Shown here: in pieces, positions 13,373 to 64,000 of the stretch | Position numbering within the stretch: the first letter of the stretch is position 1 | Layout of the letters: each line of letters begins with the position of its first letter | Origin: an uncultured Bacilli bacterium | GTDB taxonomy: Bacteria; Bacillota_I; Bacilli_A; RF39; UBA660 | Assembly: GCA_934095865.1 (NCBI GenBank) | Contig: CAKOKU010000002.1 | Coordinates: forward strand, 57,495-121,494 | DNA: 64,000 nucleotides | Direction of reading: 5' to 3' | Notes under the pieces: model-generated | What the model was told of the DNA's origin: nothing | Seen by the model: only the letters and a program-made list of their open reading frames with translations | Databases searched by the model: none | Position numbers and translations under genes: made by a program

Positions 13373-13642
13373 TCCTCCAATACTAGAGAACAGCTATAAA
13401 TATTTGTAAATACAAGTATATTATATCTCATATTTAGGATTCTTTAAATGCTAGTTTTTGATTTTCTAAAATCATAATGACATTTAACAATTTATTATTA
13501 AATATACTTTTTAATTCATCATCAGTTCTATTTTCATTTGTCTTAAATTTATATTTTACATTATATACTACCTCCATTTTCTTACTTCCCCCTTTTTTCA
13601 TATTCTATAATCTAAATCCTCCAATCATACACATCTCTCCTT

Positions 13643-14119
13643 TCATTTATAATCTTTCATTAGTTCTTCCATTTCTTTTTGTTCTTCTTCATTTAATGGG
13701 ACTGAAACACATACTTCAGGGTGTTCCAGCCAATAAGGAATTATTTCTTTTCTTTTATTATTCTTTTTATATTTATTATTATTTATATTATGGGTGCAAT
13801 TGCTTGCACTATCATTACTGCAATTTTCTGCATCTTCATCTGCAACTTTTGTTGGTATCTTTTCCATATTTAAATATATTCTTCGTTTACTATTTTCATT
13901 TTTTACTATGATATAGCCTAGTTTCTTTAATTTAGACAATGAGTAATTTATCGTTCTTTCTGATGAATTTATATACTCTTTTAGATAATCATTAGTAGCA
14001 TAACAATACCCTTTATTTAAGGCAAGTGATATGATAAGACTTAAAACATCAATATCAGTTCTTGATAAGTTCTTATCTCTAAATAATATTCGTGGAGTTA
14101 TGATAAATTCACTAGTCAA
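13643..14119 (-). CDS. winged-helix DNA-binding protein (possible replication initiator/regulator of the element)
   Basis: 158 aa. N-terminal wHTH-like DIDVLSLIISLALNKGYCYATNDYLKEYINSSERTINYSLSKLKKLGYI. Confidence 0.45.
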   Translation of the reverse strand: MTSEFIITPRILFRDKNLSRTDIDVLSLIISLALNKGYCYATNDYLKEYINSSERTINYSLSKLKKLGYIIVKNENSKRRIYLNMEKIPTKVADEDAENCSNDSASNCTHNINNNKYKKNNKRKEIIPYWLEHPEVCVSVPLNEEEQKEMEELMKDYK

Positions 14120-14171
14120 TTTTAAAATAATTATTCTCCTTAAATCTAAAATGATATTGGACTTTTTCCTA

Positions 14172-14188
14172 GCCTATTAAAAATAGGC
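14172..14188. promoter_or_regulatory. perfect inverted repeat GCCTATT-AAA-AATAGGC (candidate operator)
   Basis: 7-bp arms with 3-bp spacer, ~55 bp upstream of the wHTH gene start. No T-tract follows, so it is unlikely to be a terminator. Confidence 0.3.
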
Positions 14189-14314
14189 AAAGTTATCCCC
14201 AGAACATAATTTTAAATCCTGTCCCTAGGATTGAATGAAGTTTATTCTATTTTGATAGAAAAGGTACTAACATAAGCCTATATATCTTACTGTACCATAT
14301 CTACTAGGAGTTAT

Positions 14315-14578
14315 TTAACAACCTAGTAGATTTATTGTGTACATTCCTGTATCATATTCCTTGTAGATTAGATACTTTAATTGTTCCAATATTTCAAGAT
14401 TCCTTTTTAAACCTTTATTTTTAATTTTTACTACTTGTTGTAATTCTCCAACATTTAAATCTGTGATAATCCTATCTTGTCCTTTAGCGTAGATATATGA
14501 ATATATCAGTTTTCCCTCAGGTTTGATTCTCTTATCCTTTAAAATCTTTGTTGGCATTTCCTGATGTCTTTTATTCAT
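14315..14578 (-). CDS. small winged-helix DNA-binding protein
   Basis: 87 aa. Pattern similar to the adjacent wHTH protein (IYSYIYAKGQDRIITDLNVGELQQVVKIKNKGLKRNLEILEQLKYLI). Confidence 0.4.
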   Translation of the reverse strand: MNKRHQEMPTKILKDKRIKPEGKLIYSYIYAKGQDRIITDLNVGELQQVVKIKNKGLKRNLEILEQLKYLIYKEYDTGMYTINLLGC

Positions 14579-14753
14579 TCATAGATTTCCTCCTTTCTTG
14601 TCAATTAACATTTTAAGTATAATGTTAACTTTCAGAAACATCTATAATATACATAATAATTACTAACTTGTCAACACTTTTAGAAACAATTTTAATTATT
14701 TTGTTGATTTTAGTTAACATATATGCTATTATGTACTTGTGAGGTGTATTACA

Positions 14754-15257
14754 ATGCAAGAAAAAAAGATTGGCGAAATTATTGCCGAAGCACGAGAAAA
14801 AGCAGGTTATTCGCAAAGGCAACTTGCAAAAGAAGCAAATATTAGTAATGCCGAATTATCTAAAATAGAATCAGGAGAAAGAGAAATACCAAATCCTAAA
14901 ACATTAAGAAAAATAAGTAAATATATAAATGTTAATTATAATGAAATGATGTATAAAATAGGTTTAGGTATGGAAGTCAGTTCATTAAACCCATTTATTA
15001 AAGCCTATTATGAAAAGATGAATTTAGATGAACTGAATGAGGCTGAAATCAATGTTTTAGGTAGTATCGAAAATTCAAGAAAACTTGTTGATTCGTGCAA
15101 AGAGAATTTAAAAAAGAAAAACATATTAGAAAACGAAAAAGAACTACTACTACATACAATAGAAGATACTGAATATCAAATCAATACTTCTAGAGAAATT
15201 GTAAATTTGATTCAAAGTTTAAAAGTAAAGGAGAGAAACAAAAATGCAAAAAAGTAA
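14754..15257 (+). CDS. XRE-family HTH transcriptional regulator
   Basis: IGEIIAEAREKAGYSQRQLAKEANISNAELSKIESGER is a canonical HTH_XRE. Divergent from the wHTH gene, a switch-like arrangement. Start taken at MQEKKIGE. Confidence 0.75.
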   Translation: MQEKKIGEIIAEAREKAGYSQRQLAKEANISNAELSKIESGEREIPNPKTLRKISKYINVNYNEMMYKIGLGMEVSSLNPFIKAYYEKMNLDELNEAEINVLGSIENSRKLVDSCKENLKKKNILENEKELLLHTIEDTEYQINTSREIVNLIQSLKVKERNKNAKK

Positions 15258-15690
15258 AATTTTAATAAGAAATATTGGAATCATATTATTAAATATTTTT
15301 ATGGTAGTAAGCTTGGTATTAGTTTTATTTCAGAAAAATGATTATGGCTATAATTTATATTGGGTTATTAGTCCATTTCTAATGGTATTAGTGTTAATGG
15401 TGATAGGTAGGTGGAGCATAAGAGGATTAAATGTTGATAGAGAAGAATCCCAAGTGATACAACGATCTTTTGATGATACAACAACTATATCAACAGTAAT
15501 CTTTGGAATAATATATCTAACTATACAATTTATAGACTATGTAAAAAATGGTCTAACAAATAATTCAATAATTATTATAATCTTCTTCGTTGTCATGATT
15601 ACCTATGAACTTATAACCTACTTAGCTATATATGTAGCCATAAGAGATACTGCAAGATTATTAGAGAAAACATATAATAAGAAAAAATAG
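15244..15690 (+). CDS. hypothetical multi-pass membrane protein
   Basis: 148 aa, 3-4 predicted TM helices. Overlaps the 3' end of the XRE gene (operon). Confidence 0.45.
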   Translation: MQKSKILIRNIGIILLNIFMVVSLVLVLFQKNDYGYNLYWVISPFLMVLVLMVIGRWSIRGLNVDREESQVIQRSFDDTTTISTVIFGIIYLTIQFIDYVKNGLTNNSIIIIIFFVVMITYELITYLAIYVAIRDTARLLEKTYNKKK

Positions 15691-15876
15691 TCTTTTTCGC
15701 TTTTCGTAAGATTAGCGATTAGACTATTCTTTTATAAAAAGGCGAGGCACGTTTTGTTTGCTTTAGAAAATGAAAGTGGCGATAGCCTTTTTCTTTTTAT
15801 GTAACGATAGTGAAATAAAAAGGCAACTATATTACATTGTGAAACTTTGTAATATAAGTTGCTTCTAGGGTTTCCA

Positions 15877-15892
15877 AAGGGAATATTCCCTT
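15877..15892. promoter_or_regulatory. 16-bp perfect palindrome AAGGGAATATTCCCTT
   Basis: Seen directly, in a 350-bp non-coding region inside the element. Candidate protein-binding site. Confidence 0.3.
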
Positions 15893-16047
15893 GGCACACA
15901 TCGTTATTGGCTTGCCAATACCGTAGTGTGTTACTATAATGAAATTATAGTCTATAAAATCGAGCCATTAGTTGCTTAATTTCTTTTGGCTCGGTTTTTA
16001 TTTTAAACTGTTTTATAGATTGTAATTTGTAATTATTTCTATATATG

Positions 16048-18147
16048 CTATTTAGTATTTATTTTTTTACAAATTGGACATCCTCTACCTCTATTTCTAT
16101 TTGATATAATTGCTTCCCACTCATGTCCTTTGTTACATTTCCACCATACCTTTTTTCCACTGTTTGATGCAACCATATCTGGTTTTAAATCACCATTTTT
16201 TTCATAATTCCATTCTTTTGTAAGTGTTGGATTAATAGTTGCAAGATCATTATATCCTTTAAGTATTTGTTTATTTTTACAAACTGGGCATCCTTTTCCT
16301 TTATTTCTATTATCAATACTTGCTTCCCACTCATGTCCTTTGTTGCATTTCCACCATACCTTCTTATTAGCATTTGCTGTAACCATATCTGGTTTTAAAT
16401 CACCATTTTTTGAATAATTCCATTCTTTTGCAAGTTCTGGATTAATAGTTGCAAGATCATTATATCCTTTAAGTATTTGTTTGTTTTTACAAATTGGACA
16501 GTCATTTCCATTTGTCCTATTTGATATAGTTGCTTCCCACTCATGACCTTTGTTACATTTCCACCATACCTTTTTATTACTTCCTAAAGTTACATCTTTA
16601 GGGGTTAATGATGCGTTCTTTTCATAGTTCCATTCTTTCGCAAGTATTGGATTAGTAGTTGCAAGGTCATTATACCCTTTATGTATTTGCTTGTTTTTAC
16701 AAATTGGACATCCTCTGCCTTTATTTCTATTTGATATATAGGTTTCCCACTCATGACCTTTATTACATTTCCACCATACCTTTTTATTAGCATTTACTGT
16801 AACCATGTCAGGTTTTAAATCACCATTTTTTTCATAATTCCATTCTTTTGCAAGTGCTGGGTTAATAGTTGCAAGATCATTATACCCTTTAAGTATTTGT
16901 TGACTTGCACAAATTGGACAACCAACTCCATCTGTTCTACTATATATACTTGCTTCCCACTCATGACCTTTATTACATTTCCACCATACCTTTTTTCCAC
17001 TGTTTGATGCAACCATATCTGGTTTTAAATCACCATTTTTTTCATAATTCCATTCTTTTGCAAGTTCTGGATTAATAACCATTAATGAATGTTTCTTTTG
17101 TCTTTTTATAAATGATGTATATATTAAAATACGGTCTCTATCCAAATTAACATCTATGGTTTTATTAAAATGTTTTACTATATGTTCGATGGCAAATTTA
17201 ATTCCTTCATCAGAATATGTACATGGTATTATTTTTAAATAATCATTTTCTATAATTTCTTCTTTGAAATCTTCCTTTACTCTAAAAAGAAGAATTTCAT
17301 TTTCTTTACAAAGTTTATTTTTTCTTTCATCTTTTTCTGGATTCTGATGCCAAAATATCCCATCATATTCAACAGCAACTTTTTGTGATGGAATAAAAAT
17401 ATCTAACTCCATTTTCAAATGGCGATCACCATTTATAGCATCTGGAAACAATTTTTTTAAATAAAAATAAATTGCCTGCTCTGGAAAAGAAGTTTGTAAT
17501 TCTCTTGCACAAATTGGGCAACCATTACCTTTATTTCGACTAGATATAATTGCTTCCCACTCATGCCCTTTAACACATTTCCACCATACTTTTTTATCAC
17601 TATTTGGCTTTACCATATTTGGTTTTAAATCACCATTCTTTTTGTAATTCCATTCTTTTGCGAGTGTTGGATTTATAGTTGCTAGATCATTATACCCCAT
17701 GATTGATTGCCTACCTGAGCAAAAAGGACATCCAATGCTCTTACTTCTACTTTTTATACAGGCTTCCCATTCATGTCCTTCAGAACATTTCCACCATACC
17801 TTCTTACTGCTCCCTATGGTTACATCTTTAGGGGTTAATGGTGCATTCTTTTCATAATTCCATTCTTTTACTAAATCCGATCTTTTGTCAAATAGACTGC
17901 CATTTTTTTCTACTAAGGCTTTAATCCTATTTTTTCCTCTTTTAGAAAGTGAGCATATCGGACAGCCTCTACCTTTATTTCTATTTGATATACTTGCTTC
18001 CCACTCATTTCCACATTCGGAACATTTCCACCATACCTTTTTATCGCTTCCTGTTGTTAATAACTTTGGATTTAATCCTTCATTTTTTGAATAATTCCAT
18101 TCTTTCATTAGATATTCATTATCGATTAAATATTTTTTGTCTTTCAT
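16048..18147 (-). CDS. multi-zinc-ribbon (treble-clef) repeat protein with central Vsr/DUF559-like PD-(D/E)xK nuclease domain
   Basis: 699 aa from MKDKKYL (GGTGA-type RBS upstream). Eight ~57-aa repeats LAKEWNYEKNGDLKPDMV...KKVWWKC.KGHEWEA.IS.R.KG.GCPIC, three before and five after a core ELDIFIPSQKVAVEYDGIFWHQ...ILLFRVKE resembling Vsr/DUF559 endonuclease folds. Confidence 0.6.
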   Translation of the reverse strand: MKDKKYLIDNEYLMKEWNYSKNEGLNPKLLTTGSDKKVWWKCSECGNEWEASISNRNKGRGCPICSLSKRGKNRIKALVEKNGSLFDKRSDLVKEWNYEKNAPLTPKDVTIGSSKKVWWKCSEGHEWEACIKSRSKSIGCPFCSGRQSIMGYNDLATINPTLAKEWNYKKNGDLKPNMVKPNSDKKVWWKCVKGHEWEAIISSRNKGNGCPICARELQTSFPEQAIYFYLKKLFPDAINGDRHLKMELDIFIPSQKVAVEYDGIFWHQNPEKDERKNKLCKENEILLFRVKEDFKEEIIENDYLKIIPCTYSDEGIKFAIEHIVKHFNKTIDVNLDRDRILIYTSFIKRQKKHSLMVINPELAKEWNYEKNGDLKPDMVASNSGKKVWWKCNKGHEWEASIYSRTDGVGCPICASQQILKGYNDLATINPALAKEWNYEKNGDLKPDMVTVNANKKVWWKCNKGHEWETYISNRNKGRGCPICKNKQIHKGYNDLATTNPILAKEWNYEKNASLTPKDVTLGSNKKVWWKCNKGHEWEATISNRTNGNDCPICKNKQILKGYNDLATINPELAKEWNYSKNGDLKPDMVTANANKKVWWKCNKGHEWEASIDNRNKGKGCPVCKNKQILKGYNDLATINPTLTKEWNYEKNGDLKPDMVASNSGKKVWWKCNKGHEWEAIISNRNRGRGCPICKKINTK
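16050..18100. repeat. intragenic tandem ~171-bp coding repeats with long near-identical stretches
   Basis: For example 16141-16230 and 16981-17070 are essentially identical. Several alternate-frame ORFs in the six-frame track are artefacts of this repetition. Confidence 0.8.
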
Positions 18148-18258
18148 TTTCTCACCTTGCTTCAACAAATTATTATTTCTAGCTAAATTACATAAATAAT
18201 TATACCAAAAAAAACAACTCATATACTAGCAGTTGTTATTTAGTTTCGTCTTACTTTT

Positions 18259-19536
18259 TTACATACTTATTTCATAATCATTCTTTTCTTTTTCTTTAGA
18301 TTTTTTACTAGTTTTTAAATAACTAGGTGCTTTTACATAATCAAATAATTCATCTTCTTTGGTAGTTCCTCTTAATATTTTAACAACATCATTCATATCA
18401 AAATCGTTGTTATCAAAATAGTCTTTTATTTCAGTTGTAGTGGCTTCTTTCGTAGGTTCATTACCAATTTGTAATAATTTTCTGAAAAAGTGTTTTATAG
18501 CCTCCAAAATGGCTTTTAAATAGTCTTTAAGATGGTTATTCTCTTTTGTTAAGTTTTGATTTCTTGTAGTAAGTGCTTTTACTTCTCGTTGTAGATTTGC
18601 ATTTTCTTTTTCTAATGTTTGATGACTTTTACTAAAAGTATTTACCTCGTTAAATAATTGTTCCATTTTAGGTTGAAATTCCATAACCTTTTTAGTTTCT
18701 TTTATTACATTTTGCATACTAGCAAAAGTATCTTTTCGTACCTTTACATATTCTTTATCTATTAAAGTATTTTTAGTAGTTTTCATTTTTTCTTCAAATT
18801 CATTCATAGCATTATCAAGATTTTTATTTATAGTAGTTACTTTAGTTTCATAATATCTTGTTGTTTTCTTGAATTCCTTTACTTTTTGATGTTTTCTATC
18901 ACTACCCTTAATACCTCTTTCTAATTCAAAACCATTTTCTCTTAATCTTAAATTATAAATATCTTGCAATTCAGATAAGTGTATATTGTCTCTAATATAT
19001 TGCTTTTTAGAGATAGTAAACCTTTCTGTATTTGTTCTTTTATCAAACTTCTTAATAAGGGGTACAACAACACAATGAATATGAGGTGTTAGTTCATCCA
19101 TGTGTATTGTTGCGTGTAATATTTGTTCTTTCTTATAACCTAAATCATTGTAAACAAAATCCATACAAGTATCAGCCCATCTCATTATTTCATCTTCACT
19201 CATATTATCAAAAAATTTATGTGTTGCAGTAAACATGAGTTCATCAGCTACAACACTTTTAGATTTATTTAACATTTCATTAAATGTCTTTTTTCTTTCA
19301 GGTCGTTCATTTTTCATACGTTCATTATGCTCTTTTTCATAATCTTTTACAAGCAATTTAAAACCCTTAACATATTTCTCTGCTAAGGGTACTAATTCTA
19401 TATTATTTTTAGTTAATTCTAATTTAATATCTTTATTACTTTTATATGCTTTTTTCTCTCGTTTATTGTGTGATCCTATTTGTGCTAAATCGTTTATAGT
19501 CATTATTGGTTGACTTCTAAATATTCCATAATTCAT
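18259..19536 (-). CDS. mob: MobV-family (Mob_Pre) mobilization relaxase
   Basis: N-terminus MTINDLAQIGSHNKRE (HN.R motif); HIHCVVVP (HxH motif); long coiled-coil C-terminal half. Typical plasmid/IME Pre/Mob architecture. Confidence 0.75.
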   Translation of the reverse strand: MNYGIFRSQPIMTINDLAQIGSHNKREKKAYKSNKDIKLELTKNNIELVPLAEKYVKGFKLLVKDYEKEHNERMKNERPERKKTFNEMLNKSKSVVADELMFTATHKFFDNMSEDEIMRWADTCMDFVYNDLGYKKEQILHATIHMDELTPHIHCVVVPLIKKFDKRTNTERFTISKKQYIRDNIHLSELQDIYNLRLRENGFELERGIKGSDRKHQKVKEFKKTTRYYETKVTTINKNLDNAMNEFEEKMKTTKNTLIDKEYVKVRKDTFASMQNVIKETKKVMEFQPKMEQLFNEVNTFSKSHQTLEKENANLQREVKALTTRNQNLTKENNHLKDYLKAILEAIKHFFRKLLQIGNEPTKEATTTEIKDYFDNNDFDMNDVVKILRGTTKEDELFDYVKAPSYLKTSKKSKEKEKNDYEISM

Positions 19537-19607
19537 TTATCGTTCCTCTCTTTCTTAAAAAATTGCATAATAAAAGACACTTCACTATTAAAGTATCTTT
19601 TTGAAAT

Positions 19608-20120
19608 CTATTTTTTTTTGCTTATTCTCTTTACTCTTGAAGATATAAATCTATTTTGCTTAACAAACGAAAAAGCAAAAAGTATTGTCAGTAATGTAAA
19701 CATTACCAAAATTAAAATATCTTTATTAATCAAACTTGAAATTTCAAACATCACCATTATTTTTAACGCCAATTCAATTAGCATTAAAGTACATAAGCTT
19801 CTATACATATTACAATCTTGATTTAAAATTTCTAGTTTGTCATCTTTCTTATTTGCTTCTATATATTTATCATAAGGTTCTTTTTTCAATTTCCATATTT
19901 TAACTATTATCTTCTCAATTACTAATGAGGATATTCTACTAATTATAATACCTATAAAATATGCTTCAAAAAATGAATAAATTAGACTATCTATAATTAG
20001 ATTTTTTTCCATTATTTGACCACTAATAATTAAAAATAAATAACCTGGTACTAAATAGTTAAATATGTGATAGCTACTGATTTTCTCTATTATTTTATCC
20101 ATTTTAATTAATCCTTTCAA
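19608..20120 (-). CDS. hypothetical membrane protein (4 TM)
   Basis: 170 aa hydrophobic. Overlaps the upstream gene by 17 nt (operon with 20104-20535 and the MBL gene). Confidence 0.4.
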   Translation of the reverse strand: MKGLIKMDKIIEKISSYHIFNYLVPGYLFLIISGQIMEKNLIIDSLIYSFFEAYFIGIIISRISSLVIEKIIVKIWKLKKEPYDKYIEANKKDDKLEILNQDCNMYRSLCTLMLIELALKIMVMFEISSLINKDILILVMFTLLTILFAFSFVKQNRFISSRVKRISKKK

Positions 20121-20535
20121 ACGAATAGTTAATCTTATCTTTTACCGAAGTATAAGAACAGTTATATAAATCAAGCTCCGAATTAGTTATTTCAAAATCA
20201 AAACCATATTCTTTTCCATTTAATTTATCAGTTGTAGTATCAGTAAAAAACATATCTTTATTAGGAAACTTTATTTTTTTTACTAATCCTTGATAACAAG
20301 TAATCATCACTATATCATGTTCTTTTGGTTCTTCATTCATTAAAAAACTATAAACCTGGTTATTATGTCCATTTATGAATACTACATTACCATAATTTTC
20401 TGGTATTGACCTTAATTCAATATAATTGTCAAAGAAAAAAGGAATTGTATAAATCTTAAAAACATCATATAGATATTCTTGTCTAGATCTTATTTCTTCA
20501 AAAGTTATTTTTTTTCTTAAAAGGATATATCTCAT
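20104..20535 (-). CDS. hypothetical protein
   Basis: 143 aa, no recognisable motifs. Overlaps both neighbours. Confidence 0.35.
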   Translation of the reverse strand: MRYILLRKKITFEEIRSRQEYLYDVFKIYTIPFFFDNYIELRSIPENYGNVVFINGHNNQVYSFLMNEEPKEHDIVMITCYQGLVKKIKFPNKDMFFTDTTTDKLNGKEYGFDFEITNSELDLYNCSYTSVKDKINYSFERIN

Positions 20536-21397
20536 AACAATTTAAAGTTCCCCTTCTTTCTGCTTTAAATGAATTTTGATTTATACTAAAAGCACCATTT
20601 TTAGTATTCATAATTCGATGTCCCTTAACCTCTAAGTTGTCAGAGCCACCATTAATGTCAGCACCTTTATTATCAGAAACAATATACAACACATCGTTTC
20701 GTTTTTCATTTTTTTCAAATACTTTCTGAGCCATATCATTGTTTCCATGGTGAGGTAATTGAATAGCATCATAATTTCTAGTTTTATCATCAAAAGCAGC
20801 AAAGTCGGCATCTCCAGTTAACAATAACTTTTGTCCATTAAAATTTACTTCTAATTGAACGCTTATAGCATTCATTATCGTACTGCTATCTATATTATTA
20901 CTCTCATTTGGGGTAAATTGTTTAGCAACAGCATCAATAAAATATTCTGTTGCAGGTCCTACAATCTTTAAATTGTCAGATAAATTATTATCATCATCTA
21001 AAGCATCCTTTAAATTTTGTCCTGATAAAGAATAAATGTTACTATACATATCTTTAATATTCTGGGTTAAGGAGTCCCTAGTAACTCTATTATCCTCTAT
21101 TTTATCAAAGATTGCATCTTTATATTTTAATAACAATAATGTTGTAATAGAATTAACTACACCATTATCAACTAATTTTGGTATTCCATCAAAATGATCG
21201 CTATCATTATGTGATAAAACTAAATCAACTTTATCTATATTTTTTTCCTCTAAATAGTGTAGTACTTGATCTGCCAATTCTTCAGAACCACAATCGTACA
21301 CTGTAACACTACCATTATCATTAATAATAAAGCAGTCTCCATAATCAACATTATCTTTTTGCTCCTTAGGAGCAAGAACTTTTATTTCTAAATTCAT
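20498..21397 (-). CDS. ComEC-type metallo-beta-lactamase fold protein
   Basis: Start MNLEIKV with GGAGG RBS. LVLSHNDSDHFDG (H.D.DH variant of HxHxDH); TGDADF; LPHHGNND (the HHG motif of ComEC/Rec2-type MBL domains). Confidence 0.6.
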   Translation of the reverse strand: MNLEIKVLAPKEQKDNVDYGDCFIINDNGSVTVYDCGSEELADQVLHYLEEKNIDKVDLVLSHNDSDHFDGIPKLVDNGVVNSITTLLLLKYKDAIFDKIEDNRVTRDSLTQNIKDMYSNIYSLSGQNLKDALDDDNNLSDNLKIVGPATEYFIDAVAKQFTPNESNNIDSSTIMNAISVQLEVNFNGQKLLLTGDADFAAFDDKTRNYDAIQLPHHGNNDMAQKVFEKNEKRNDVLYIVSDNKGADINGGSDNLEVKGHRIMNTKNGAFSINQNSFKAERRGTLNCYEIYPFKKKNNF

Positions 21398-21466
21398 ATT
21401 ATTCCTCCTCTTTTTAAAAATAAAATCAGAGGTAGATACCAACTTCATTAAACTAATTCAAAATAA

Positions 21467-26064: not shown

Positions 26065-26499
26065 ATGTTTTTTGAAGATGTTGATTTTTTAGTTAATGGC
26101 AGTATACCAAATTATAATTCTTTTAATCATACTAATAATGGGCTTGTTGATTGTAAAATGGGGTATCTTAGAGGAAATATGTTTAAAAATGAATATATTC
26201 CATATAAAAATTATAACGTTAAAGAATTAATTCCCAAAACTGAAGAAGAAGCTTTAATGTTAAAGTTAAATGAAGCTGAGTTTGCTTTAAATGATATAAG
26301 TTTATATTTAGATTTACATCCAAATGATGATGATATGTACAATATTTTTCGTGAAGAAGTAAAAAAATATAAATCTTACTTAGAACAATATGAGAAGATG
26401 TATAAACCACTAAATTTAACTAGCACTTATAGTGATGCTTATGATTATTATAAAAATCCATGGCCTTGGGATAATGATGGAGGTGTAAAATATGTATAA
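26065..26499 (+). CDS. cotJB: CotJA/CotJB-like spore coat protein (apparent fusion)
   Basis: C-terminal half (...ISLYLDLHPNDDDMYNIF...KNPWPWDN) matches CotJB (LYLDTHPED...KYPWEW...PWPW). N-terminal ~55 aa with PY motifs could correspond to CotJA. Overlaps the cotJC start. Confidence 0.6.
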   Translation: MFFEDVDFLVNGSIPNYNSFNHTNNGLVDCKMGYLRGNMFKNEYIPYKNYNVKELIPKTEEEALMLKLNEAEFALNDISLYLDLHPNDDDMYNIFREEVKKYKSYLEQYEKMYKPLNLTSTYSDAYDYYKNPWPWDNDGGVKYV

Positions 26500-27052
26500 A
26501 TATGAAAAACACCTAGCTTATCCAGTTAATATTAAGAAAAAAGATTTAAAAATGGCTAAATATATTATTGCTGGTTTAGGTGGATATGCTGGTGAGTTAG
26601 CCGCCGCTTTAAGATATTTTAATCAAAGTTTCTCTATGCCAGATGCTAAAGGTAAAGCACTGCTTAATATGATTGCCACTGAAGAATTAGGCCATTGTGA
26701 AATGATTGCTACTATGTTTAGACAATTAATTAAAGATGCTACTTTACAAGAATTAGAAGCAGCGGGCTTAGCTGAGTATTATGTGGAACATGGAAAAGGT
26801 GTTTATCCTATAAATCCAGCTGGGGTACCATTTACTGTTAGTTATTTTGCCTCGACTGGTGATCCTGTTGTAGATTTATGTGAAGATATGGCAGCGGAAG
26901 AAAAAGCGAGGGCAGGTTATGAAAATATGTTAAACCTAGCTACTGATGAAGATTTAATCGGACCGTTATTATTTTTAAGGCAAAGGGAAATTATTCACTA
27001 TAATAGATTTAAAGAATTATATGAATATTATAAAAATAAAGATAACAAATAA
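26492..27052 (+). CDS. cotJC: spore coat protein CotJC (manganese-catalase/ferritin-like)
   Basis: MYKYEKHLAYPVNI...GELAAALRYFNQ...TEELGHCEMIATMF...AAEEKARAGYE match the B. subtilis CotJC signature almost motif-for-motif. Confidence 0.85.
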   Translation: MYKYEKHLAYPVNIKKKDLKMAKYIIAGLGGYAGELAAALRYFNQSFSMPDAKGKALLNMIATEELGHCEMIATMFRQLIKDATLQELEAAGLAEYYVEHGKGVYPINPAGVPFTVSYFASTGDPVVDLCEDMAAEEKARAGYENMLNLATDEDLIGPLLFLRQREIIHYNRFKELYEYYKNKDNK

Positions 27053-27153: not shown

Positions 27154-28680
27154 ATGGATATTAAAATTAATGGGTATCCATTAGATACTGAGCAGTTAAA
27201 AATTGCAACTAGCACTTGTCAGGAACTTTTAGTAGTAGCAGGTGCAGGATCTGGTAAAACATTTACAATATTAGGTAGAATCTGGTATTTAATAAATATT
27301 AAAAAAATAGAAGCAAAAAATATTTTATGTATATCATATACCCGTGAAGCCGCTAATAGTTTGAAAGAGAAGTTAAAAAAAGAACTTAATATAGACATAG
27401 ATGTATTTACATTCCATAAATTGGCTCTTAATATCTTAAAAGAAAATGCAGCTAACTTTAGTATAGCTAATGCTGATACTTTAGAACTTTGTATAGAAGA
27501 ATATTTAAAAATAGACATCTTAAATTATCCTGAACAGCTTAAATATCTGCGTTTTATTTTAAAGATTAATTGGCACAGTAACGAGGAGTATCTTCAAAAA
27601 CTAGAAGAAAATGAGGATGAAGTAAATAAATTTATTAATATAATAGCTACATTTATAAAATTATATAAATGTAATGGGTATAATGTAACTTTTTTTAGCA
27701 ATCTCTTAAATAAATTACAAAAAAATTTCTGGAAAAAGATAGATAGTTTTTATATTTTGATCATATTTAATATTTATTTAAAATATAGTACCTATTTAAA
27801 AGATAATAATGAATATGATTTTGATGATTTAATTATTGAAGCTACTAAAATTATTAACAAAAATGATACAGTTAAGAATTACAAGCACTTTATAATTGAT
27901 GAATATCAGGATAGTTCTTTTATTCGATTCAATCTAATTAAAACAATCGTTGACAGGAATAATAGCTATTTTATGGCAGTTGGTGACGACTTTCAATCAA
28001 TATATAAATTTTCTGGAAGTGATATAAATTTATTTATTAATTTTAATAGTTTCTTTAGAGCTGGAAAAATTCTAAAAATCCAAACAACATACCGTAATAG
28101 TCAAGAATTAGTTAATGTAGCCGGTGATTTTATTATGCAAAATAAGAAGCAAATAAAAAAGGAAATGCGATCAAATATTCATATAGATAGGCCAATTAAA
28201 ATTGTTTATTATTCTAATGACAAAAAAGACTTTTTCACATTATTATCATATCTTTATAAAATCGAAAGTTATAAGTTGTTTATACTAAGTAGAAATAATA
28301 AAGATATAGAAAATTTTATTAATGATAAAGTTATTTATAGTGATGGGAACGTAAAAATTGAAGGTAAAAGCCGATTCATTATTAGACATATGACGATTCA
28401 CAAGTCGAAGGGCTTAGAATGTGATGATGTAATTTTAATTAATTTGATTGATGATAAATTAGGATTTCCTTCAATGATGGAACAAGATAAAATATTAAAT
28501 TATATTCGGAAAGATACTAAAAAAGATTTTATAGAAGAGGAAAGAAGATTGTTTTATGTTGCTTTAACCCGTGCGAAAAGAAATTGTTATTTATTTGTTC
28601 CAAGAGAAAAGCCCTCTATTTTTGTAAGAGAGCTATTGAAGAATTACAAAGAATACATTGAATTTATTAACATCCATTAG
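27154..28680 (+). CDS. UvrD/Rep-family (superfamily 1) DNA helicase, short form
   Basis: Walker A VVAGAGSGKTFTI; motif II FIIDEYQDSS; motif VI-like VALTRAKR. 508 aa, compact for the family. Confidence 0.65.
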   Translation: MDIKINGYPLDTEQLKIATSTCQELLVVAGAGSGKTFTILGRIWYLINIKKIEAKNILCISYTREAANSLKEKLKKELNIDIDVFTFHKLALNILKENAANFSIANADTLELCIEEYLKIDILNYPEQLKYLRFILKINWHSNEEYLQKLEENEDEVNKFINIIATFIKLYKCNGYNVTFFSNLLNKLQKNFWKKIDSFYILIIFNIYLKYSTYLKDNNEYDFDDLIIEATKIINKNDTVKNYKHFIIDEYQDSSFIRFNLIKTIVDRNNSYFMAVGDDFQSIYKFSGSDINLFINFNSFFRAGKILKIQTTYRNSQELVNVAGDFIMQNKKQIKKEMRSNIHIDRPIKIVYYSNDKKDFFTLLSYLYKIESYKLFILSRNNKDIENFINDKVIYSDGNVKIEGKSRFIIRHMTIHKSKGLECDDVILINLIDDKLGFPSMMEQDKILNYIRKDTKKDFIEEERRLFYVALTRAKRNCYLFVPREKPSIFVRELLKNYKEYIEFINIH

Positions 28681-29203
28681 AGCAAGTAAAACCATCAGTT
28701 TTACCGATTATTGTTAAATCAACATCATATTTACGGCGAGTTGTGTTATCAACATTTTTTACTGGGATGTGAATTGTTAATAAGTAATCAGGAGTAGAGG
28801 TGCCATTAACTTTATTAATAAAATTAACTTTTATATTGCTAATATCATACTCACCATATTCTAAATTCCATTTTTCTAAACTGTTAGAGGGACCATAAGC
28901 AATAAAGTTAGTACCTACATATAAATATTTAGTCGTTGAAGAGAAAGTAAAACTGTAACAAGCTTTGGCACCACTTTTATTAAGACTACAATTTTTATAA
29001 AATCTTGTAAGATTATTATTTATTAAATCGCCTTCAATAACATTAATTAAAGAGGCTCTTGTTAGAGAATCAGCATTTCTAGTAGTACTAATAGTTTCTT
29101 CATTTTTTATATCAGCAAGAAGATTAGTTAAAAATATCATGACAATAGCTATTAAGACTAAACTTACTAAAACTTCCATTAAGGTCATACCTTTTCTATT
29201 CAT
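28667..29203 (-). CDS. prepilin-type (type IV pilin-like / pseudopilin) protein
   Basis: N-terminal MNRKG|MTLMEVLVSLVLIAIV class III signal (G at -1, E at +5). C-terminal Cys pair (CSNGC). Confidence 0.65.
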   Translation of the reverse strand: MNRKGMTLMEVLVSLVLIAIVMIFLTNLLADIKNEETISTTRNADSLTRASLINVIEGDLINNNLTRFYKNCSLNKSGAKACYSFTFSSTTKYLYVGTNFIAYGPSNSLEKWNLEYGEYDISNIKVNFINKVNGTSTPDYLLTIHIPVKNVDNTTRRKYDVDLTIIGKTDGFTCSNGC

Positions 29204-29205
29204 AA

Positions 29206-29913
29206 TTAAGCACCCCTTATAAATAATTTAACGCTATTATAATAATATTTTGTTACGTTTTTGTAGCACTTATTAGTACTTCTATCTAATGTATAGCCGG
29301 TCTGGCAAGTACTTCCGTTTGGTGTTTGACTACGGGTATAATCAACCGTGTTTTCTTGATATTCAACTATTAAGCGGTATCCATCATCCGTTCCTGATAA
29401 AGTTTTTAAATAAAGAATAGCATTGGTACTCATGTTATTTAAGGCATCAATGGTTTCTTTTGAACATCTAGAACTGGCATTGGTCGTTTTACCACTTTTG
29501 GTAGTACAAGATTTTAAATCATTAACATTATAATATGTAATATAAATCTTATTAACATTTAACGTGTTAAGTGTATTAAATAAAAGTGATGAAAATAACT
29601 GACGATTGGCTTCTTCTTTATTTTCGGTACCATTTTCATATAAATTATACAAGGAATTGTCAGTTGTATTTAAAACAATAATTCTTTTTGAAGTATTATT
29701 TAGATACTTATTAATGTAGTCATAAAGATTTAATGATACTAAGTAGTCTTCTATGAAGTAAGTGCGGTATATGTATGCCGTATCATCAAAAGCTACACGT
29801 CTTTTTTCGTTAGTTAGAACCCTAGAAAAAGACACGTATATCATAATTAAAGAAGTAGTTAATATAGTTATAACCATAATTGTTTCAACAAACATAAATC
29901 CTTTTTTATTCAT
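29206..29913 (-). CDS. prepilin-type (pseudopilin-like) protein
   Basis: MNKKG|FMFVETIMVITIL class III signal peptide with E+5. Several Cys in the C-terminal domain. Confidence 0.6.
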   Translation of the reverse strand: MNKKGFMFVETIMVITILTTSLIMIYVSFSRVLTNEKRRVAFDDTAYIYRTYFIEDYLVSLNLYDYINKYLNNTSKRIIVLNTTDNSLYNLYENGTENKEEANRQLFSSLLFNTLNTLNVNKIYITYYNVNDLKSCTTKSGKTTNASSRCSKETIDALNNMSTNAILYLKTLSGTDDGYRLIVEYQENTVDYTRSQTPNGSTCQTGYTLDRSTNKCYKNVTKYYYNSVKLFIRGA

Positions 29914-37922: not shown

Positions 37923-38582
37923 TTAATTATTGTTAATAACATCATTGTAATCTAAAAGATAAAATTCTTCTGGATTAAATACTTCACCTTTATAGAATAC
38001 TTCAAAATGAAGAGCATTGCTTGAATCTGTTGTTATTTTGTTTTGACCACTGGTTGCTATAATATCACCTTGTTTAACAACATCACCGACTTTAACTTTT
38101 ACTTCGCCAAGACTTTGATAAATAGTTGTTAAATTATTTGTGTGTTCAATTTCTACAATATTTCCCATTAAACTGTCTTCTTTAATATTTTTTATTGTTC
38201 CATCTAAAATAGCTATAACATCGAAGGTATTATTTGAAGTGTATAAGACACCTGTATTTTGCATATAAATCCCTTCATAATAAATTAAAGATGCTGCCTG
38301 CTCATCATTTGTTCCGGTCATACTATAAAAAGGAATAGTAGCAGTTACATCGGTATTCGTATAGGGACGAATTATCTTTTTAGCTTCATTAATAGTTGGG
38401 GTTATGTTACTATCAGAATCATTATTTACTTCATTTGTTTTTTCGCCACTATTACTTGGAGTAATGGGAACATTATAACTTAGAATTTCATACATTTTGT
38501 AGCTACTGAAAATAATGGTACAAATTAGCATTAAACAGATTGTTGGGATAACAAATTTTTTTAATCTTCTTCTTTTTTTCAT
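37923..38582 (-). CDS. M23 (LytM-type) peptidase domain protein
   Basis: N-terminal TM; C-terminal GNIVEIEHTNNLTTIYQSL...GDIIATSGQ...LHFEVF resembles an M23 fold. Confidence 0.65.
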   Translation of the reverse strand: MKKRRRLKKFVIPTICLMLICTIIFSSYKMYEILSYNVPITPSNSGEKTNEVNNDSDSNITPTINEAKKIIRPYTNTDVTATIPFYSMTGTNDEQAASLIYYEGIYMQNTGVLYTSNNTFDVIAILDGTIKNIKEDSLMGNIVEIEHTNNLTTIYQSLGEVKVKVGDVVKQGDIIATSGQNKITTDSSNALHFEVFYKGEVFNPEEFYLLDYNDVINNN

Positions 38583-38628
38583 ATATAATTCACCTTTCTA
38601 TTAAGAAGTGTGAACTATTTTTCTTTTT

Positions 38629-39537
38629 TTATACATTAAATTTCTGTATTTCAGTGCCTTGATAATAAAATTGTAATATATCTTGGTAAGAAGAGCCATT
38701 TTTAGCCATCGCATTCGCCCCATACTGGCTCATACCAACGCCGTGACCGTAACCTTTGGTTGTAATAATAATATTATCCTGATCTTCTTGAAGTGTAAAA
38801 TCGGTTGAACGTAAATTAAATTGCTGGCGAAGATTTAAACCAGTATACTCATGGTTATTAATTGTTATCATTGTTACTCGATTAGATTCATCTCTTTTAG
38901 GTGAAGATATATTTAACTTGCTACAATCTAAAGCTAACTTTTCACAGAATTGAGTCTTGGATATTGTTTTAGTGACTTCAAAATTATTGGTATTAGAATT
39001 ATCTAAGGTTGGGATTATTATATTTAAATAGGGTAATTCTTCATTAAATACTGCTAAGGAAGTAGTGGTATAGCCGTTACTCATAGCATAAAAATAAGCT
39101 TTTATTAATTTGTTATCATAATATAAAACCTCATTTTGGGTAGAGGTTATTGCTGCTTTTATTTTATTATAATATTCATCATATTTAGTTTGCCACTTAG
39201 TTTTAAGTTCTTCTTCGGTTGCAAAAGCTTGATCACCAGTAGTAACATATCCTCTTTTTTCTTGTTGATATAATGCAAAGGTTCGGCTGGCAACCGCTTG
39301 AGCTTTTAAAGCTTCAATATTAAAAGAAGCAGGTGATTCTGCTCCTAAAACACCAATTAAATATTCTTCAATTGGTAAAGAAATAGTTTCATTATTATAT
39401 GAGAAATTTATTAATATTTCAGAAGAGGCTAAATAAGCATCTGCCGATGGATTGTTAGTTGCATCTTGATTTAATAAGCTAATTATTGTAAATGGTATTA
39501 AAATAACACTAATTAAAGCCAAGATTTTGTTTTTCAT
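38629..39537 (-). CDS. spoIID: SpoIID/LytB-family protein (stage II sporulation protein D-like)
   Basis: Signal peptide; conserved C-terminal [17 protein letters not shown] motif of SpoIID. Confidence 0.75.
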
Positions 39538-45754: not shown

Positions 45755-46261
45755 CTAGTCATTATTAGTATATTTCATAAGTGTTTCTTTAATAAATGAT
45801 TTATATTCAACATCATTCATATTGTTATTATCAATAAGACATAAAGGAGGGTACATAATACACCAAAAATTTTCTCCTTGCCCTTGACCTAAAGTTATTA
45901 CTAAGGAATTATAGTATCCAGGTTTATAAGTCACTCCTTTGTATTTTTTCATAGGAAAATAATTTTGACCATACGAAATTGTATAAGCTACGTTGTGACT
46001 ATTTAAAATTTGCTTTATATAAGGGATGCTTTCGCTTATAGAGGCATCAATATTACTAGTATTAGTAAATTTAGGCATAACTTGCTTTAGAATATCTTCT
46101 TTGATGTATTGCTTTGTTAATTGATCACTAACCGAATTAGAAGAAGCAATTATTCGGAATCTAATGGCATTGTTTGGAATTATAACCTCTTCTTTAGCGG
46201 TTGTTAGATAAAGTAAGGATACGATTGCTAATAAAACTATTATCTTTTTTATAAAAATCAC
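45755..46261 (-). CDS. spoIIR: SpoIIR-like protein (stage II sporulation protein R)
   Basis: Signal peptide; IRFRIIASSNSVSDQLTKQYIKEDILKQV matches the conserved IRLHV(I/L)ANSDS..DQ.LK..VRD motif of SpoIIR. Confidence 0.6.
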   Translation of the reverse strand: MIFIKKIIVLLAIVSLLYLTTAKEEVIIPNNAIRFRIIASSNSVSDQLTKQYIKEDILKQVMPKFTNTSNIDASISESIPYIKQILNSHNVAYTISYGQNYFPMKKYKGVTYKPGYYNSLVITLGQGQGENFWCIMYPPLCLIDNNNMNDVEYKSFIKETLMKYTNND

Positions 46262-60569: not shown

Positions 60570-61095
60570 ATAATACTGTTGATAGTGTGGATAACTTTTA
60601 TAAAAGTGCCGAATTTATTGGGGAAAAATAGTAAAAATGGGCTGTGGATAACTAATGAATTATCCACAATTTAACTGTTGATAACTAAAAAAAGGTGTGG
60701 ATAAAGTAAAAAAGTTGTCATTTTTTTGTTAAAAAAATTAAAAAAATATTGTTGATTTTGTGAATAATCTATAAGTTATCCACAGAAGAGATAAAAAAAG
60801 TACATAAAAATCGTAGTTATCAACAGCTTTAAATGCAGTAAATATAAGGCTTTGAAGCGGTTATCCACATTATCAACAGGTACTATGTATATAGTTATCC
60901 ACAATTTTTGTATCAAAAAATAGTCAACCTGTGGATAACTTAAAAATTTCCCTAAAAGCAGCCAAAAAATCTGTGGATAAACTGTTGATAAGTTGTTAGC
61001 AACCTGTTGATAATTTTGTGGATAACTTTTATCCAGAAAAAAGTAAAAATGTCTTTACAAAAATTAATCTTATGGTATAAAATAGGTGTTGATTA
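60570..61095. promoter_or_regulatory. oriC: oriC: DnaA-box cluster plus AT-rich unwinding region upstream of dnaA
   Basis: Ten perfect TTATCCACA boxes (either orientation) starting at 60586, 60643, 60660, 60696, 60776, 60861, 60895, 60930, 60972 and 61017. At least five 1-mismatch boxes (TTATCAACA/TGTTGATAA) at 60676, 60817, 60870, 60983 and 61005. A/T runs at 60705-60760. Confidence 0.9.
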
Positions 61096-62472
61096 TTGGT
61101 TATAAGTGGGGTGATAATTTTGCAATCTCAGGATTTATGGGATAAATTTTTGAATATATTACAAGAAAAAATGAATCCTATATCCTTTAATACTTGGTTT
61201 AAACCGTTGAAATTACAAGAAATATCAAAAAAAGATAACAAAATTATTATTCAGGTGCCTATGGGAGTACATAAAACAACGTTGGAAACAAGTTGGCATA
61301 AGATTATTGAAGAAGCCCTTTTAGAGGCTACTGGCAATTCTTATGAAATTGTTTATACGTTGGAAAGTATGACTACTCAAAATAAAGAAGATTCTTCCTC
61401 TTTAAATGGTAAAAAAGAAGAAGAATCTTTTAATACGAATTTAAAAAAAGAGTTTACTTTTGATAATTTTGTAACAGGAGATACTAATAAATTTGCTAAG
61501 ACAGCAGCGATTGCTGTTGCTGAAGCTCCTGGTAAAGTTTATAATCCATTATTTATGTATGGGAAAAGTGGTGTTGGTAAGACTCATTTAATGCATGCAA
61601 TAGGCAATTATATAACTGAACATACTAATTTGAAGGTTTTATACACAACTAGTGATAGCTTTAAAGATGATTATACTAGTATTGCTGGTGGTGGTAGTGA
61701 TAGTACTTTTTCAAGAGCTGAATATTTTAAAAATAAGTATCGTGATGTTGATGTTTTGTTGATTGATGATATTCAGTTTTTGGTTGGAGCTGAAAAAACT
61801 CAACAAGGGTTCTTTCATACTTTTAATGAGCTACATGATAAGAATAAACAAATAATTATTACATCTGATCGTTCGCCGGAAGATTTAAAACTTTTAGAAG
61901 AACGTTTAAGAAGTAGATTTGCTTGGGGATTACCTGTTGATATTTATCCACCAGACTACGAACTACGTTGTCGAATTATTAGAGATAAAGTTAGATATTT
62001 GAATTTGGCATCAATGTTAAATGATGATGTTGTTAATTATATTGCTAATTCATGTGATACTGATGTTCGTGAAATCGAAGGTGCGATTAATAGATTACAA
62101 GCTTATACAGCTGTTTATGCCCCAGCAAATATCACTTTGGATTTTGCGATGGAAGCTTTGGGAGATTATGTTAATAATAATATTTACTCTATAAGTAACA
62201 TTTCGTTAGTTCAAAAAGCGGTTGCTGATTACTATGGAATAACTGTTGAAGCTTTGAAAGGTAAGAAAAAATCAAAGAATATTGCTTATCCAAGGATGCT
62301 TGGAATGTATATGGCGAGAATAATGACAAATGAATCATTTCCGCGAATTGGTTTGGAATTTGGTGGTAGAGACCATTCTACGGTTATCCATGCTTGTGAT
62401 AAAATAGAAGAAGATTTAAAGGATAATAAAAAATTACAAGAAATAATAAATGAAATAAAAACAAAGGTTTAA
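61096..62472 (+). CDS. dnaA: chromosomal replication initiator protein DnaA
   Basis: Walker A GKSGVGKTHL; AAA+ box; C-terminal DNA-binding domain with ...DHSTVIHA. Start codon uncertain (TTG 61096, GTG 61111 or TTG 61120). Confidence 0.9.
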   Translation: MVISGVIILQSQDLWDKFLNILQEKMNPISFNTWFKPLKLQEISKKDNKIIIQVPMGVHKTTLETSWHKIIEEALLEATGNSYEIVYTLESMTTQNKEDSSSLNGKKEEESFNTNLKKEFTFDNFVTGDTNKFAKTAAIAVAEAPGKVYNPLFMYGKSGVGKTHLMHAIGNYITEHTNLKVLYTTSDSFKDDYTSIAGGGSDSTFSRAEYFKNKYRDVDVLLIDDIQFLVGAEKTQQGFFHTFNELHDKNKQIIITSDRSPEDLKLLEERLRSRFAWGLPVDIYPPDYELRCRIIRDKVRYLNLASMLNDDVVNYIANSCDTDVREIEGAINRLQAYTAVYAPANITLDFAMEALGDYVNNNIYSISNISLVQKAVADYYGITVEALKGKKKSKNIAYPRMLGMYMARIMTNESFPRIGLEFGGRDHSTVIHACDKIEEDLKDNKKLQEIINEIKTKV

Positions 62473-62494: not shown

Positions 62495-63613
62495 ATGAAA
62501 TTTACAATTGAAAAAAATATAATTTTAGAAAATTTAATGAATGTAGCAAGAGCTATTTCTACTAAAAATGTTATACCTGTTTTAAATGGTATAAAGTTTG
62601 AAATGCTAGAAGACGGTTTATATTTAACGGCAAGTGATGCAGAATTAACTATAAAATCTTTTATTGCTAAAAAGGATATAAAGGAAGTAAAAGCGTTAGG
62701 CAGTATAATTATTCAAAGTAAATTCATTGTTGATATAATTAGAAAAATGCCTAGTGATATCATCGATTTTGAAGTAGTAGATGGGTTAAAAATAAGATTG
62801 GTAAGTGGTAATAGTGAATGTAGTCTAAATTGTTTAGATTCAAGTGATTATCCACAAATAGCTTTAGATGAACATAAAAATCCTATCATTATTAATAGTT
62901 CATTATTTAAGAAAATAATTAGTCAAACAGCTTTTGCTATTTCAACTCAAGAATTAAGACCTCTTCTTACTGGTTTAAATTTTAAAATTACTGGTGATAT
63001 TTTAGAGTGTATTGCTACTGATTCATACCGTTTAGCTAAGAAAACTGTTTCTTTAAATAGTGGCGCTGAAAATGATGTCAATATGGTAATACCTGGTAGA
63101 AATGTTTTAGAGCTAGATAAAATCATAAATGATGATGTTGATATGGAGTTGCATGTATTTAGTAATAAAGTGTTATTTAAATATAAAAATATTGTTTTCC
63201 AAAGTAATCTTTTAGCTGGTAATTATCCAAATACTAATAATTTAATACCTACTAATTTTGAAATGATGATGAGTACTAATTTAAATGATTTTTATAATGC
63301 AATAGATAGAGCTTCATTAGTTACTCAAAGTAAAGATAAAAATATAGTAAGAATGAAATTAGAAAACAATAAGTTGGTTATAAATTCTTATGCTTCTGAA
63401 ATTGGTAAAGTAGAAGAAACAATTGATGTAGAATGTAATGGTGAATTTGATATAGCTGTATCTTTTAGTGCAAAATATATGTTGGAAGCTTTAAGAACAT
63501 TTAAAGATGAAAAGATAATGATATTGTTAAATGGTGATATTAAGCCTATTGTAATTAAATCTACTGAAGATGAAACATTAATACAATTAATATTACCTAT
63601 AAAAACATATTAA
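62495..63613 (+). CDS. dnaN: DNA polymerase III beta sliding clamp
   Basis: 372 aa; three-domain clamp; MKFTIEK...ILENL start typical of DnaN. Directly downstream of dnaA. Confidence 0.9.
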   Translation: MKFTIEKNIILENLMNVARAISTKNVIPVLNGIKFEMLEDGLYLTASDAELTIKSFIAKKDIKEVKALGSIIIQSKFIVDIIRKMPSDIIDFEVVDGLKIRLVSGNSECSLNCLDSSDYPQIALDEHKNPIIINSSLFKKIISQTAFAISTQELRPLLTGLNFKITGDILECIATDSYRLAKKTVSLNSGAENDVNMVIPGRNVLELDKIINDDVDMELHVFSNKVLFKYKNIVFQSNLLAGNYPNTNNLIPTNFEMMMSTNLNDFYNAIDRASLVTQSKDKNIVRMKLENNKLVINSYASEIGKVEETIDVECNGEFDIAVSFSAKYMLEALRTFKDEKIMILLNGDIKPIVIKSTEDETLIQLILPIKTY

Positions 63614-63676
63614 TTTGTAGTAAATTTTTGATATAAGGGAATCATAAAAATGGTTCTCTTTTTAAAAGTTCTTTTT

Positions 63677-63706
63677 TTCGACAAAGTTCGACAAAATTCG
63701 ACAATA
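63677..63706. promoter_or_regulatory. three tandem, 10-bp-phased copies of TTCGACA (reverse complement TGTCGAA, the Spo0A '0A box' consensus)
   Basis: TTCGACAAAG TTCGACAAAA TTCGACAATA read directly from the sequence. Lies between the dnaN stop and the comK-like start (63753). Confidence 0.5.
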
Positions 63707-63752
63707 TATTTGTGTTATATTAAGCCAAATTCATAAACAAGGGGGAATTTTT

Positions 63753-64000
63753 ATGGAATTTTATGAAATTAATATGGATACTTTATTTTTGAAAGGAGTT
63801 ATTAATGCTTTAGGGGAAGTAAGCACACTTATAATAGAAAATGATAAGGAATTTGGTTTAAAAATATCACCAACAGAAGTAATAAAATATAGTTGTGAAT
63901 TCTTTGGCACGACTTTAGAAGGACGTCAAAAAGGATCAATGAATTTATTGGGAATAAAGCATAAGGTACCAATAGTAGTAGAAAGTAGTATGGAGTTAAT
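63753..64000 (+). CDS. comK: ComK-family competence transcription factor (N-terminal part; truncated by window end)
   Basis: Translation MEFYEINMDTLFLKGV...YSCEFFGTTLEGRQKGSMNLLGIKHKVPIVVESS follows the ComK pattern YEVN..T.A..P...SC.FFGSSY.GRK.GT...I.HK.PI.V. Confidence 0.55.
   Translation, partial: MEFYEINMDTLFLKGVINALGEVSTLIIENDKEFGLKISPTEVIKYSCEFFGTTLEGRQKGSMNLLGIKHKVPIVVESSMEL

Follow-up and report, generated by a model that had tools for sequence, protein, structure and literature searches.

A conserved triple array of 0A-type boxes as a probable Spo0A operator at the promoter of a ComK-family gene in uncultured gut Bacilli

The DNA analysed here, referred to throughout as the window, is a single stretch of 64 kb in which the gene order rpmH-rnpA-yidC-jag-mnmE (on the minus strand) is followed by an intergenic region, dnaA, dnaN and a ComK-family gene, beyond which lie recF, gyrB and gyrA. 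Between dnaN and the ComK-family gene, the plus strand carries three copies of the heptamer TTCGACA in an exact 10-bp register at 63677–63706 (TTCGACAAAG TTCGACAAAA TTCGACAATA). This array starts 63 nt past the dnaN stop codon (63613), just beyond a terminator hairpin. The original prediction had described a triple TTCGACA in perfect 10-bp register, placed 47 bp upstream of a ComK-like open reading frame, and had identified its reverse complement with the canonical 0A box, the binding site of Spo0A. All three statements hold on re-examination: the copies start at 63677, 63687 and 63697, in an arrangement far above chance expectation, the last base of the 30-bp stretch lies 47 nt before the ATG at 63753, and the match to the 0A core is complete (7/7). 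The rest of the window contains four further copies of TTCGACA, each within coding sequence. For the spaced pair TTCGACA-N3-TTCGACA, with up to two mismatches allowed, 0.15 occurrences would be expected by chance in the window and two were observed, both of them in the array.

Table 1 Coordinates of the features around the array and of the sporulation genes found in the window
Feature	Position	Strand	Remarks
dnaA	61096–62472		Gene upstream of dnaN
dnaN (DNA polymerase III beta clamp)	62495–63613	+	372-aa ORF; Pfam DNA_pol3_beta domains 1–3 on the identical protein
dnaN intrinsic terminator hairpin, then T-run	63635–63660	+	RNA fold -15.3 kcal/mol, z = -3.86
0A-type box 1, TTCGACA	63677–63683	+	About -51 to -45 from the inferred start site; 32 nt to the -10 element
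0A-type box 2, TTCGACA	63687–63693	+	About -41 to -35; 22 nt to the -10 element
0A-type box 3, TTCGACA	63697–63703	+	About -31 to -25, within the promoter spacer; 12 nt to the -10 element
Extended -10 element TGTTATATT (TGnTATAAT type)	63713–63721	+	Read from the sequence
Ribosome-binding site GGGGG	63741–63745	+	7 nt before the ATG; kept in all relatives
ComK-family gene	63753–64000, truncated at the window edge	+	153 aa when complete, own terminator behind
CwlD-like amidase	11202–11756
cotJB and cotJC	26065–27049
SpoIIQ-like M23 protein beside spoIID	37926–39537
spoIIR	45758–46261

The hairpin behind dnaN separates dnaN transcription from the comK promoter. None of 200 shuffled sequences folded as well, and a simple terminator scan had missed the structure because its stem uses G-U pairs. 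On the other side of the array lies the extended -10 element TGTTATATT, to which the distances in Table 1 are counted from the TCGACA part of each box. No -35-like hexamer was found 16–18 nt upstream of TGTTATATT, and we infer a transcription start site for the ComK-family gene near 63728. The sole match of a sigma-70 promoter scan near the array, TCGACA-16-GACAAT, would use a box as its -35 element; this match is weak, lies inside the array and was set aside in favour of the conserved TGnTAnnnT element. The complete ComK-family gene was taken from an identical contig (L001:11259-11720). With a promoter and a terminator of its own, the gene forms a monocistronic unit whose promoter carries the array.

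The protein encoded by this gene matches the Pfam ComK model PF06338 with 138 bits (cut-off 22.3) over model positions 2–146 of 152, and returned no match in an NCBIfam search. Compared with B. subtilis ComK, it shows 33% identity and lacks the C-terminal ~40 residues. Elsewhere in the window, at 28670–29913, a protein with a prepilin-type N-terminal methylation motif and a weak ComGE-like match is followed by an unannotated 235-aa ORF. The prepilin-like protein may be left over from a competence pseudopilus operon or belong to one, and no obvious 0A box or K-box pair was seen upstream of it.

In eight other assemblies of the same species the array is identical, apart from one strain (L006) in which box 3 reads TTTGACA, and the whole dnaN-comK spacer is likewise identical in the eight places read, with the exception of that strain. 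The DnaN protein of the window is found unchanged on 23 or more contigs of human-gut assemblies, the MAG GCA_029100845.1 among them. Conservation beyond the species was assessed in loci collected by a ComK alignment search with one genome per species, which gave 45 loci from uncultured Bacilli. Record titles among the 45 include 'Mycoplasma sp. CAG:956', 'Clostridium sp. CAG:710' and 'uncultured Tenericutes', and their ComK proteins share between 31% and 68% identity with the query.

Of 46 related species-level loci with dnaN-comK(-recF) synteny, 32 have one or more perfect copies of TTCGACA in the 150 nt upstream of comK. The perfect boxes number 54 in total, all in the coding-strand orientation, against an expectation of 0.005 per region. 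A TGnTAnnnT element stands at a quantised distance from the boxes in 33 of the 46 loci; to within 1 nt, the box-to-element spacer is 11 nt in 16 cases, 21 nt in 12 and 31 nt in another 16. When the loci are aligned on their -10 elements, they carry one, two or three boxes, always on this 11/21/31-nt grid. The heptamer is constant across species while the 3-nt gaps between boxes vary (AAA, AAG, AAT, AAC, TAA, TTT), and little else in the sequence upstream of comK is conserved among the relatives. The fixed orientation, the quantised spacing and the constant heptamer together are the signature of a protein-binding site belonging to the comK promoter. Conservation in relatives, which had been put forward earlier as a check on the array, is thereby borne out, with both position and orientation kept.

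Most related species, and most single-box species among them, have a box at the position of box 2, which lies 21 nt from the -10 element in the relatives. In the clade nearest to the window, boxes 1 and 3 are perfect, and variants such as TTTGACA and TATGACA take the place of the middle box. Throughout 673 kb of related DNA, tandem boxes occur solely at the comK promoter, bar one antisense pair within the dnaA coding sequence of one locus (L043), which we judged to be a coding by-product. A perfect box is missing from the remaining 14 loci, some of which have one-mismatch versions only, so control through these boxes is not universal.

Two variations on this arrangement were seen among the relatives. 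Four loci (L037, L029, L040 and L046) retain the 10-bp grid upstream of comK with decayed boxes, as in the TTCGCTA-AAA-TAAGACA-AAA-TTAGACA of L037; such decay would be consistent with these species having lost the regulator. In single-box species, TTCGACA often sits inside the dnaN terminator hairpin, as in L035, L039, L044 and L058, where it lies ~65 nt upstream of comK. A hairpin-embedded box of this kind reads GACTATA-TTCGACAAAA-TATAGTC, then a T-run, so that one stretch of DNA would be both terminator and operator.

The binding protein suggested by the heptamer is Spo0A. The 7-bp core of the 0A box is TGTCGAA (PMC3485338, PMC2731898), and in the three boxes of the array, read as the reverse complement, G2, C4 and G5 are all intact. 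These are the contacted positions, and B. subtilis and C. difficile Spo0A recognise the core alike (PMC3485338). The boxes of the array follow one another head to tail with a 3-bp gap, which is the spacing of described Spo0A sites; a pair of boxes with this gap forms a single footprinted Spo0A site in the phages phi29 and Nf (PMC2731898). In B. subtilis, moreover, Spo0A~P binds the comK promoter directly (PMC3297582). Judging from the sequence, we consider it likely that the three TTCGACA copies are a Spo0A operator that controls the ComK-family gene.

A scan of public metagenomes for the perfect triple array gave at least 120 loci, and many of the matches listed are plain 10-bp tandem repeats in unrelated DNA (e.g. 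L099, L100, L115). Among the matches listed there are nine further AT-rich loci with the order dnaN-array-comK, and recF comes next in the seven whose contig reaches it. As far as can be read from such contigs and from the related loci, some 40 uncultured Bacilli from gut and other metagenomes share this arrangement. Other AT-rich loci among the matches listed carry the array and an extended -10 element before unrelated genes, and the use of one design before several unrelated genes is as expected of a regulon.

In other Firmicutes, the same scan found the array at spo0A and abrB, which are canonical direct Spo0A targets. On gut contigs of 60–64% GC, a triple array (TGTCGAA-N3 three times) lies ~130 nt upstream of spo0A (L093:1031-1057, L202:773-799), and the L202 array recurs among the matches listed in L102, L134, L149, L159 and L160. 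A further triple array (L120:3110-3136) lies ~100 nt upstream of an abrB promoter. Arrays were also seen before genes for small soluble HATPase_c histidine kinases, spoVS and parA/soj (L121, L135, L191; L116, L198; L126; L096). The histidine kinases behind triple arrays sit on high-GC gut contigs and could be orphan sporulation kinases under Spo0A feedback.

Searching with B. subtilis Spo0A by tblastn, we found no spo0A in the 64-kb window or in any of the fetched loci and flanks, and a search of 90% clusters with the Spo0A DNA-binding domain gave Bacillus-like matches only. When 50%-identity representatives were filtered for AT-rich amino-acid composition, a Spo0A family of 263–269 aa emerged, whose nearest named relatives there, at ~43–50% identity, belong to the Erysipelotrichaceae and to related MAGs (Merdibacter, for example). 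The genes of this family stand in the canonical dxs-tlyA-recN-spoIVB-spo0A context on contigs of 24–28% GC from rabbit and human gut assemblies. One cluster comes from the Hadza/Nepal, MERR22-1 and HILD21-1 gut assemblies, the first two series of which also gave the DnaN of the window, and the contig counts are similar (23 contigs in 32 index blocks for the Spo0A cluster, 23 in 31 for the DnaN). None of the AT-rich Spo0A contigs looked up was tied to GCA_029100845.1 or, by tetranucleotide similarity, to the window.

The DNA-binding domains of the AT-rich Spo0A proteins keep the motif GVPAHIKGY and the recognition helix RVERAIRHAIEVAW unchanged, so these proteins should read the same box. No perfect 0A box was found upstream of the lineage's own spo0A genes. 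In three of the proteins (P0155, P0283 and P0286, from L060, L063 and L064) the receiver domain is degenerate, with the acidic DD replaced by EN or DN and Asp56 by Asn, and a related Spo0A (P0444) retains the phospho-acceptor Asp. With Asn in place of the phospho-acceptor in some of these proteins, phosphorylation control may not apply to them, and their degenerate receivers hint at a Spo0A that could act independently of phosphorylation.

The window itself contains a set of sporulation genes (Table 1), most of them within 40 kb of the origin, including a SpoIID that scores 274 bits, above the cut-off of the NCBIfam equivalog. These genes indicate a lineage that retains the endospore programme. 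In a survey of these orders, RF39 is described as keeping spo0A together with a pared-down set of sporulation genes, spoIIQ among them, and ML615J-28 and RFN20 as mostly lacking spoIID (PMC10868615); the gene set of the window fits RF39. Apart from these genes, the window carries an apparent integrated mobile element at ~11768–21448, which encodes a large serine recombinase (Resolvase, Recombinase and Zn ribbon domains plus DUF4368), a regulator of the HTH_3 type, a Mob_Pre relaxase and a protein of 724 aa in which the DUF4379 zinc finger is repeated eight times. At 10173–11120 there is also an abortive-infection gene of the Abi_2 type.

The original prediction had coupled Spo0A to comK expression, to origin-proximal control or to both, and the array could indeed be imagined to serve the replication origin, with Spo0A or another factor restraining initiation beside dnaN and the nearness of comK being incidental. 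The array lies 2.6 kb from a cluster of DnaA boxes, and B. subtilis Spo0A blocks initiation at origin 0A boxes according to work cited in PMC2731898. Boxes of 0A type are also present upstream of dnaA in three relatives (L023:2924, L025:2921, L030:3078), and on this pattern Spo0A may also touch the origins of these three species. The DnaA boxes of the window, however, are upstream of dnaA, in an intergenic cluster at 60586–61037 with ten perfect and several one-mismatch copies (TTATCCACA); the sole perfect DnaA box nearer to the array, at 62848, is within the dnaN coding sequence. The dnaN-comK spacer (63614–63752) contains no DnaA box, the dnaA-dnaN gap measures 22 bp, and the window's own oriC is without a perfect 0A box. 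Moreover, in all species the boxes point the same way relative to comK, and their distances to its -10 element are quantised. With the DnaA boxes upstream of dnaA and the 0A-type boxes tracking the comK -10 element, we regard origin control as very improbable; that part of the earlier claim is not supported, nor is a competence role of the ComK-family protein in this organism, and the part concerning the comK promoter is upheld by the fixed spacing between the boxes and the -10 element. Two further sequences in the origin regions were recorded. In L030, TTCGACA-AAT-ACTGACA-AAA-TTCAGCA abuts a DnaA-box-like sequence (TATCCACA). A TGTCGAA at 61969–61975, inside dnaA, is conserved in several relatives, probably because it reads through the Cys-Arg-Ile codons of DnaA, and was dismissed as an operator in favour of a coding by-product.

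Another protein might instead bind the 10-bp-phased heptamers, for which a CtsR-like repressor, an OmpR/PhoB-type response regulator and the ComK-family protein itself come into question; we find this unlikely. CtsR is the class III heat-shock repressor, whose operators overlap Gram-positive promoters and consist of a direct heptad repeat with a 3-nt gap and the consensus (A/G)GTCAAA, or TTTGACY-NTN-TTTGACY as the reverse complement. The array resembles such an operator as a direct heptad repeat with a 3-nt gap at a promoter, and the middle box is TTTGACA in many relatives, but the array precedes a comK gene and not a clp gene, and differs in the central CG, the mark of a 0A box. The conserved TTCGACA matches the CtsR heptad at 5/7 positions as against 7/7 for the 0A core, and no CtsR homologue was found in the fetched DNA. 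With two of seven positions mismatched, the central CG among them, and no homologue in that DNA, a CtsR operator was rejected. As for ComK itself, K-box pairs are spaced by whole helical turns. Autoregulation would have a precedent in B. subtilis ComK, which activates its own promoter (PMC3297582), and ComK boxes are described as AAAA-N5-TTTT pairs (Hamoen 1998, as cited in PMC3297582); near the array, however, there is a single K-box half-site (63664–63676), which is absent from the relatives inspected, and a K-box pair at the array was rejected on this count. The failure to find spo0A in the window or the fetched flanks leaves room for a binder other than Spo0A, and the array with a -10 element before unrelated genes on AT-rich contigs would fit any regulon. 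Against this stand the identical triple arrays upstream of spo0A and abrB, including those on gut contigs of 60–64% GC, from organisms in which ComK would not be expected. It is also highly unlikely, in our estimation, that no dedicated factor is involved and that the array arose by tandem duplication or boosts a housekeeping promoter as an UP-like element or as bent DNA with phased A-tracts. The units do have the form TTCGACAAA(N), with A-tracts phased at 10 bp, and plain 10-bp tandem repeats bearing TTCGACA exist in unrelated DNA (L099, L100, L115). Across species, however, the heptamer is kept while the gaps vary, the number of boxes changes from one to three yet always at 11, 21 or 31 nt, and single boxes persist even in the loop of the dnaN terminator. 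Varying gaps, a fixed grid and persistent single boxes mark a recognised site rather than a repeat or a bend.

Our verdict, drawn by analogy, is that the array would be a Spo0A operator on a spoIIG-like promoter. At spoIIG and spoIIE, 0A boxes in the TTCGNCA orientation reportedly overlap a -35-like hexamer, which is said to lie 21–22 bp from the -10 element, too far for sigma-A alone, and an extended -10 element is reportedly needed there. The promoter studied here has this layout, with TCGACA 22 nt (21 nt in relatives) before a TG-extended -10 element, and TCGACA or TTGACA stands 21–22 nt from TGnTAnnnT in the promoter family; the comparison with spoIIG and spoIIE serves as a lead rather than as a test. 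The target, in contrast to spoIIG and spoIIE, is a ComK-family gene and not a sporulation sigma-factor operon, and the third box reaches into the promoter spacer. All three boxes of the array match the consensus perfectly, in contrast to the spoIIG boxes, which are termed weak in the title of Baldus 1994, as cited in PMC4168254.

On such a promoter, Spo0A molecules would bind adjacent boxes head to tail, and the one on the box near -40 would contact sigma-A/RNA polymerase, supplying a contact that sigma-A alone cannot make. Rising Spo0A activity would then switch on the ComK-family gene. The box near -40 is retained in most species, which argues for activation. Box 3 sits between -35 and -10, a place from which a site usually represses, and could sharpen cooperativity or shut the promoter at high Spo0A. 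The latter would yield a band-pass or pulse similar to that of B. subtilis comK and sinI, for which pulse-type behaviour is described (PMC3297582). Whether Spo0A activates or represses here is the least certain part of this proposal.

The array shares features with several known Spo0A targets and departs from each. Like the B. subtilis comK promoter with its sites A1–A3 and R1–R2, it would place Spo0A directly on comK (PMC3297582), and activation at low and repression at high regulator levels could occur at both promoters. The B. subtilis comK sites, however, have one or two mismatches, are spread out and largely counter Rok alongside ComK autoregulation (PMC3297582), whereas the present boxes, all three perfect and in strict 10-bp register, lie directly against the core promoter of a gene in the dnaN-recF gap, with no K-box pair. 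The heptamer and the 10-bp start-to-start spacing are shared with the abrB and phi29/Nf A2c sites (PMC3485338, PMC2731898), and, as at A2c, the array covers part of the core promoter. Those tandem sites repress, in contrast to the action proposed here. The abrB and spo0A arrays, furthermore, read TGTCGAA relative to the gene and lie farther from the core promoter, while the array at comK reads TTCGACA and extends from -25 upstream.

The type of site, the regulator and the pairing of Spo0A with comK are thus known already. What would be new, as read from these genomes, is the strong-consensus, core-promoter form of the link and its conservation across an uncultured lineage. The literature searched contained no description of the fixed dnaN-comK-recF order and none of Spo0A with an RF39 ComK. 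More speculatively, and in our view with little likelihood, the ComK-family protein might be a principal direct output of Spo0A in these reduced-genome gut Bacilli and, fixed as it is beside recF, might regulate sporulation entry or DNA repair instead of competence; its place beside oriC would tie its dosage and early capture in the forespore to replication and chromosome translocation, and its driver, a Spo0A that in some relatives is without the phospho-acceptor Asp, may need no phosphorelay.

For these uncultured small-genome gut Bacilli, apparently of the RF39 type by record titles and gene content, sporulation is known solely from gene inventories, and a regulator gene under a conserved Spo0A operator of consensus sequence would, if true, be a concrete wire in their developmental circuit. 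Since the recognition helix of Spo0A is invariant, the proposal can be tested without culture: the DNA-binding domain of B. subtilis or C. difficile Spo0A should read the array, and so should B. subtilis reporter strains. The finding also flags the fixed dnaN-comK-recF gene order, and it suggests that a Spo0A-to-comK link that looks weak and indirect in B. subtilis may exist elsewhere as a strong core-promoter design.
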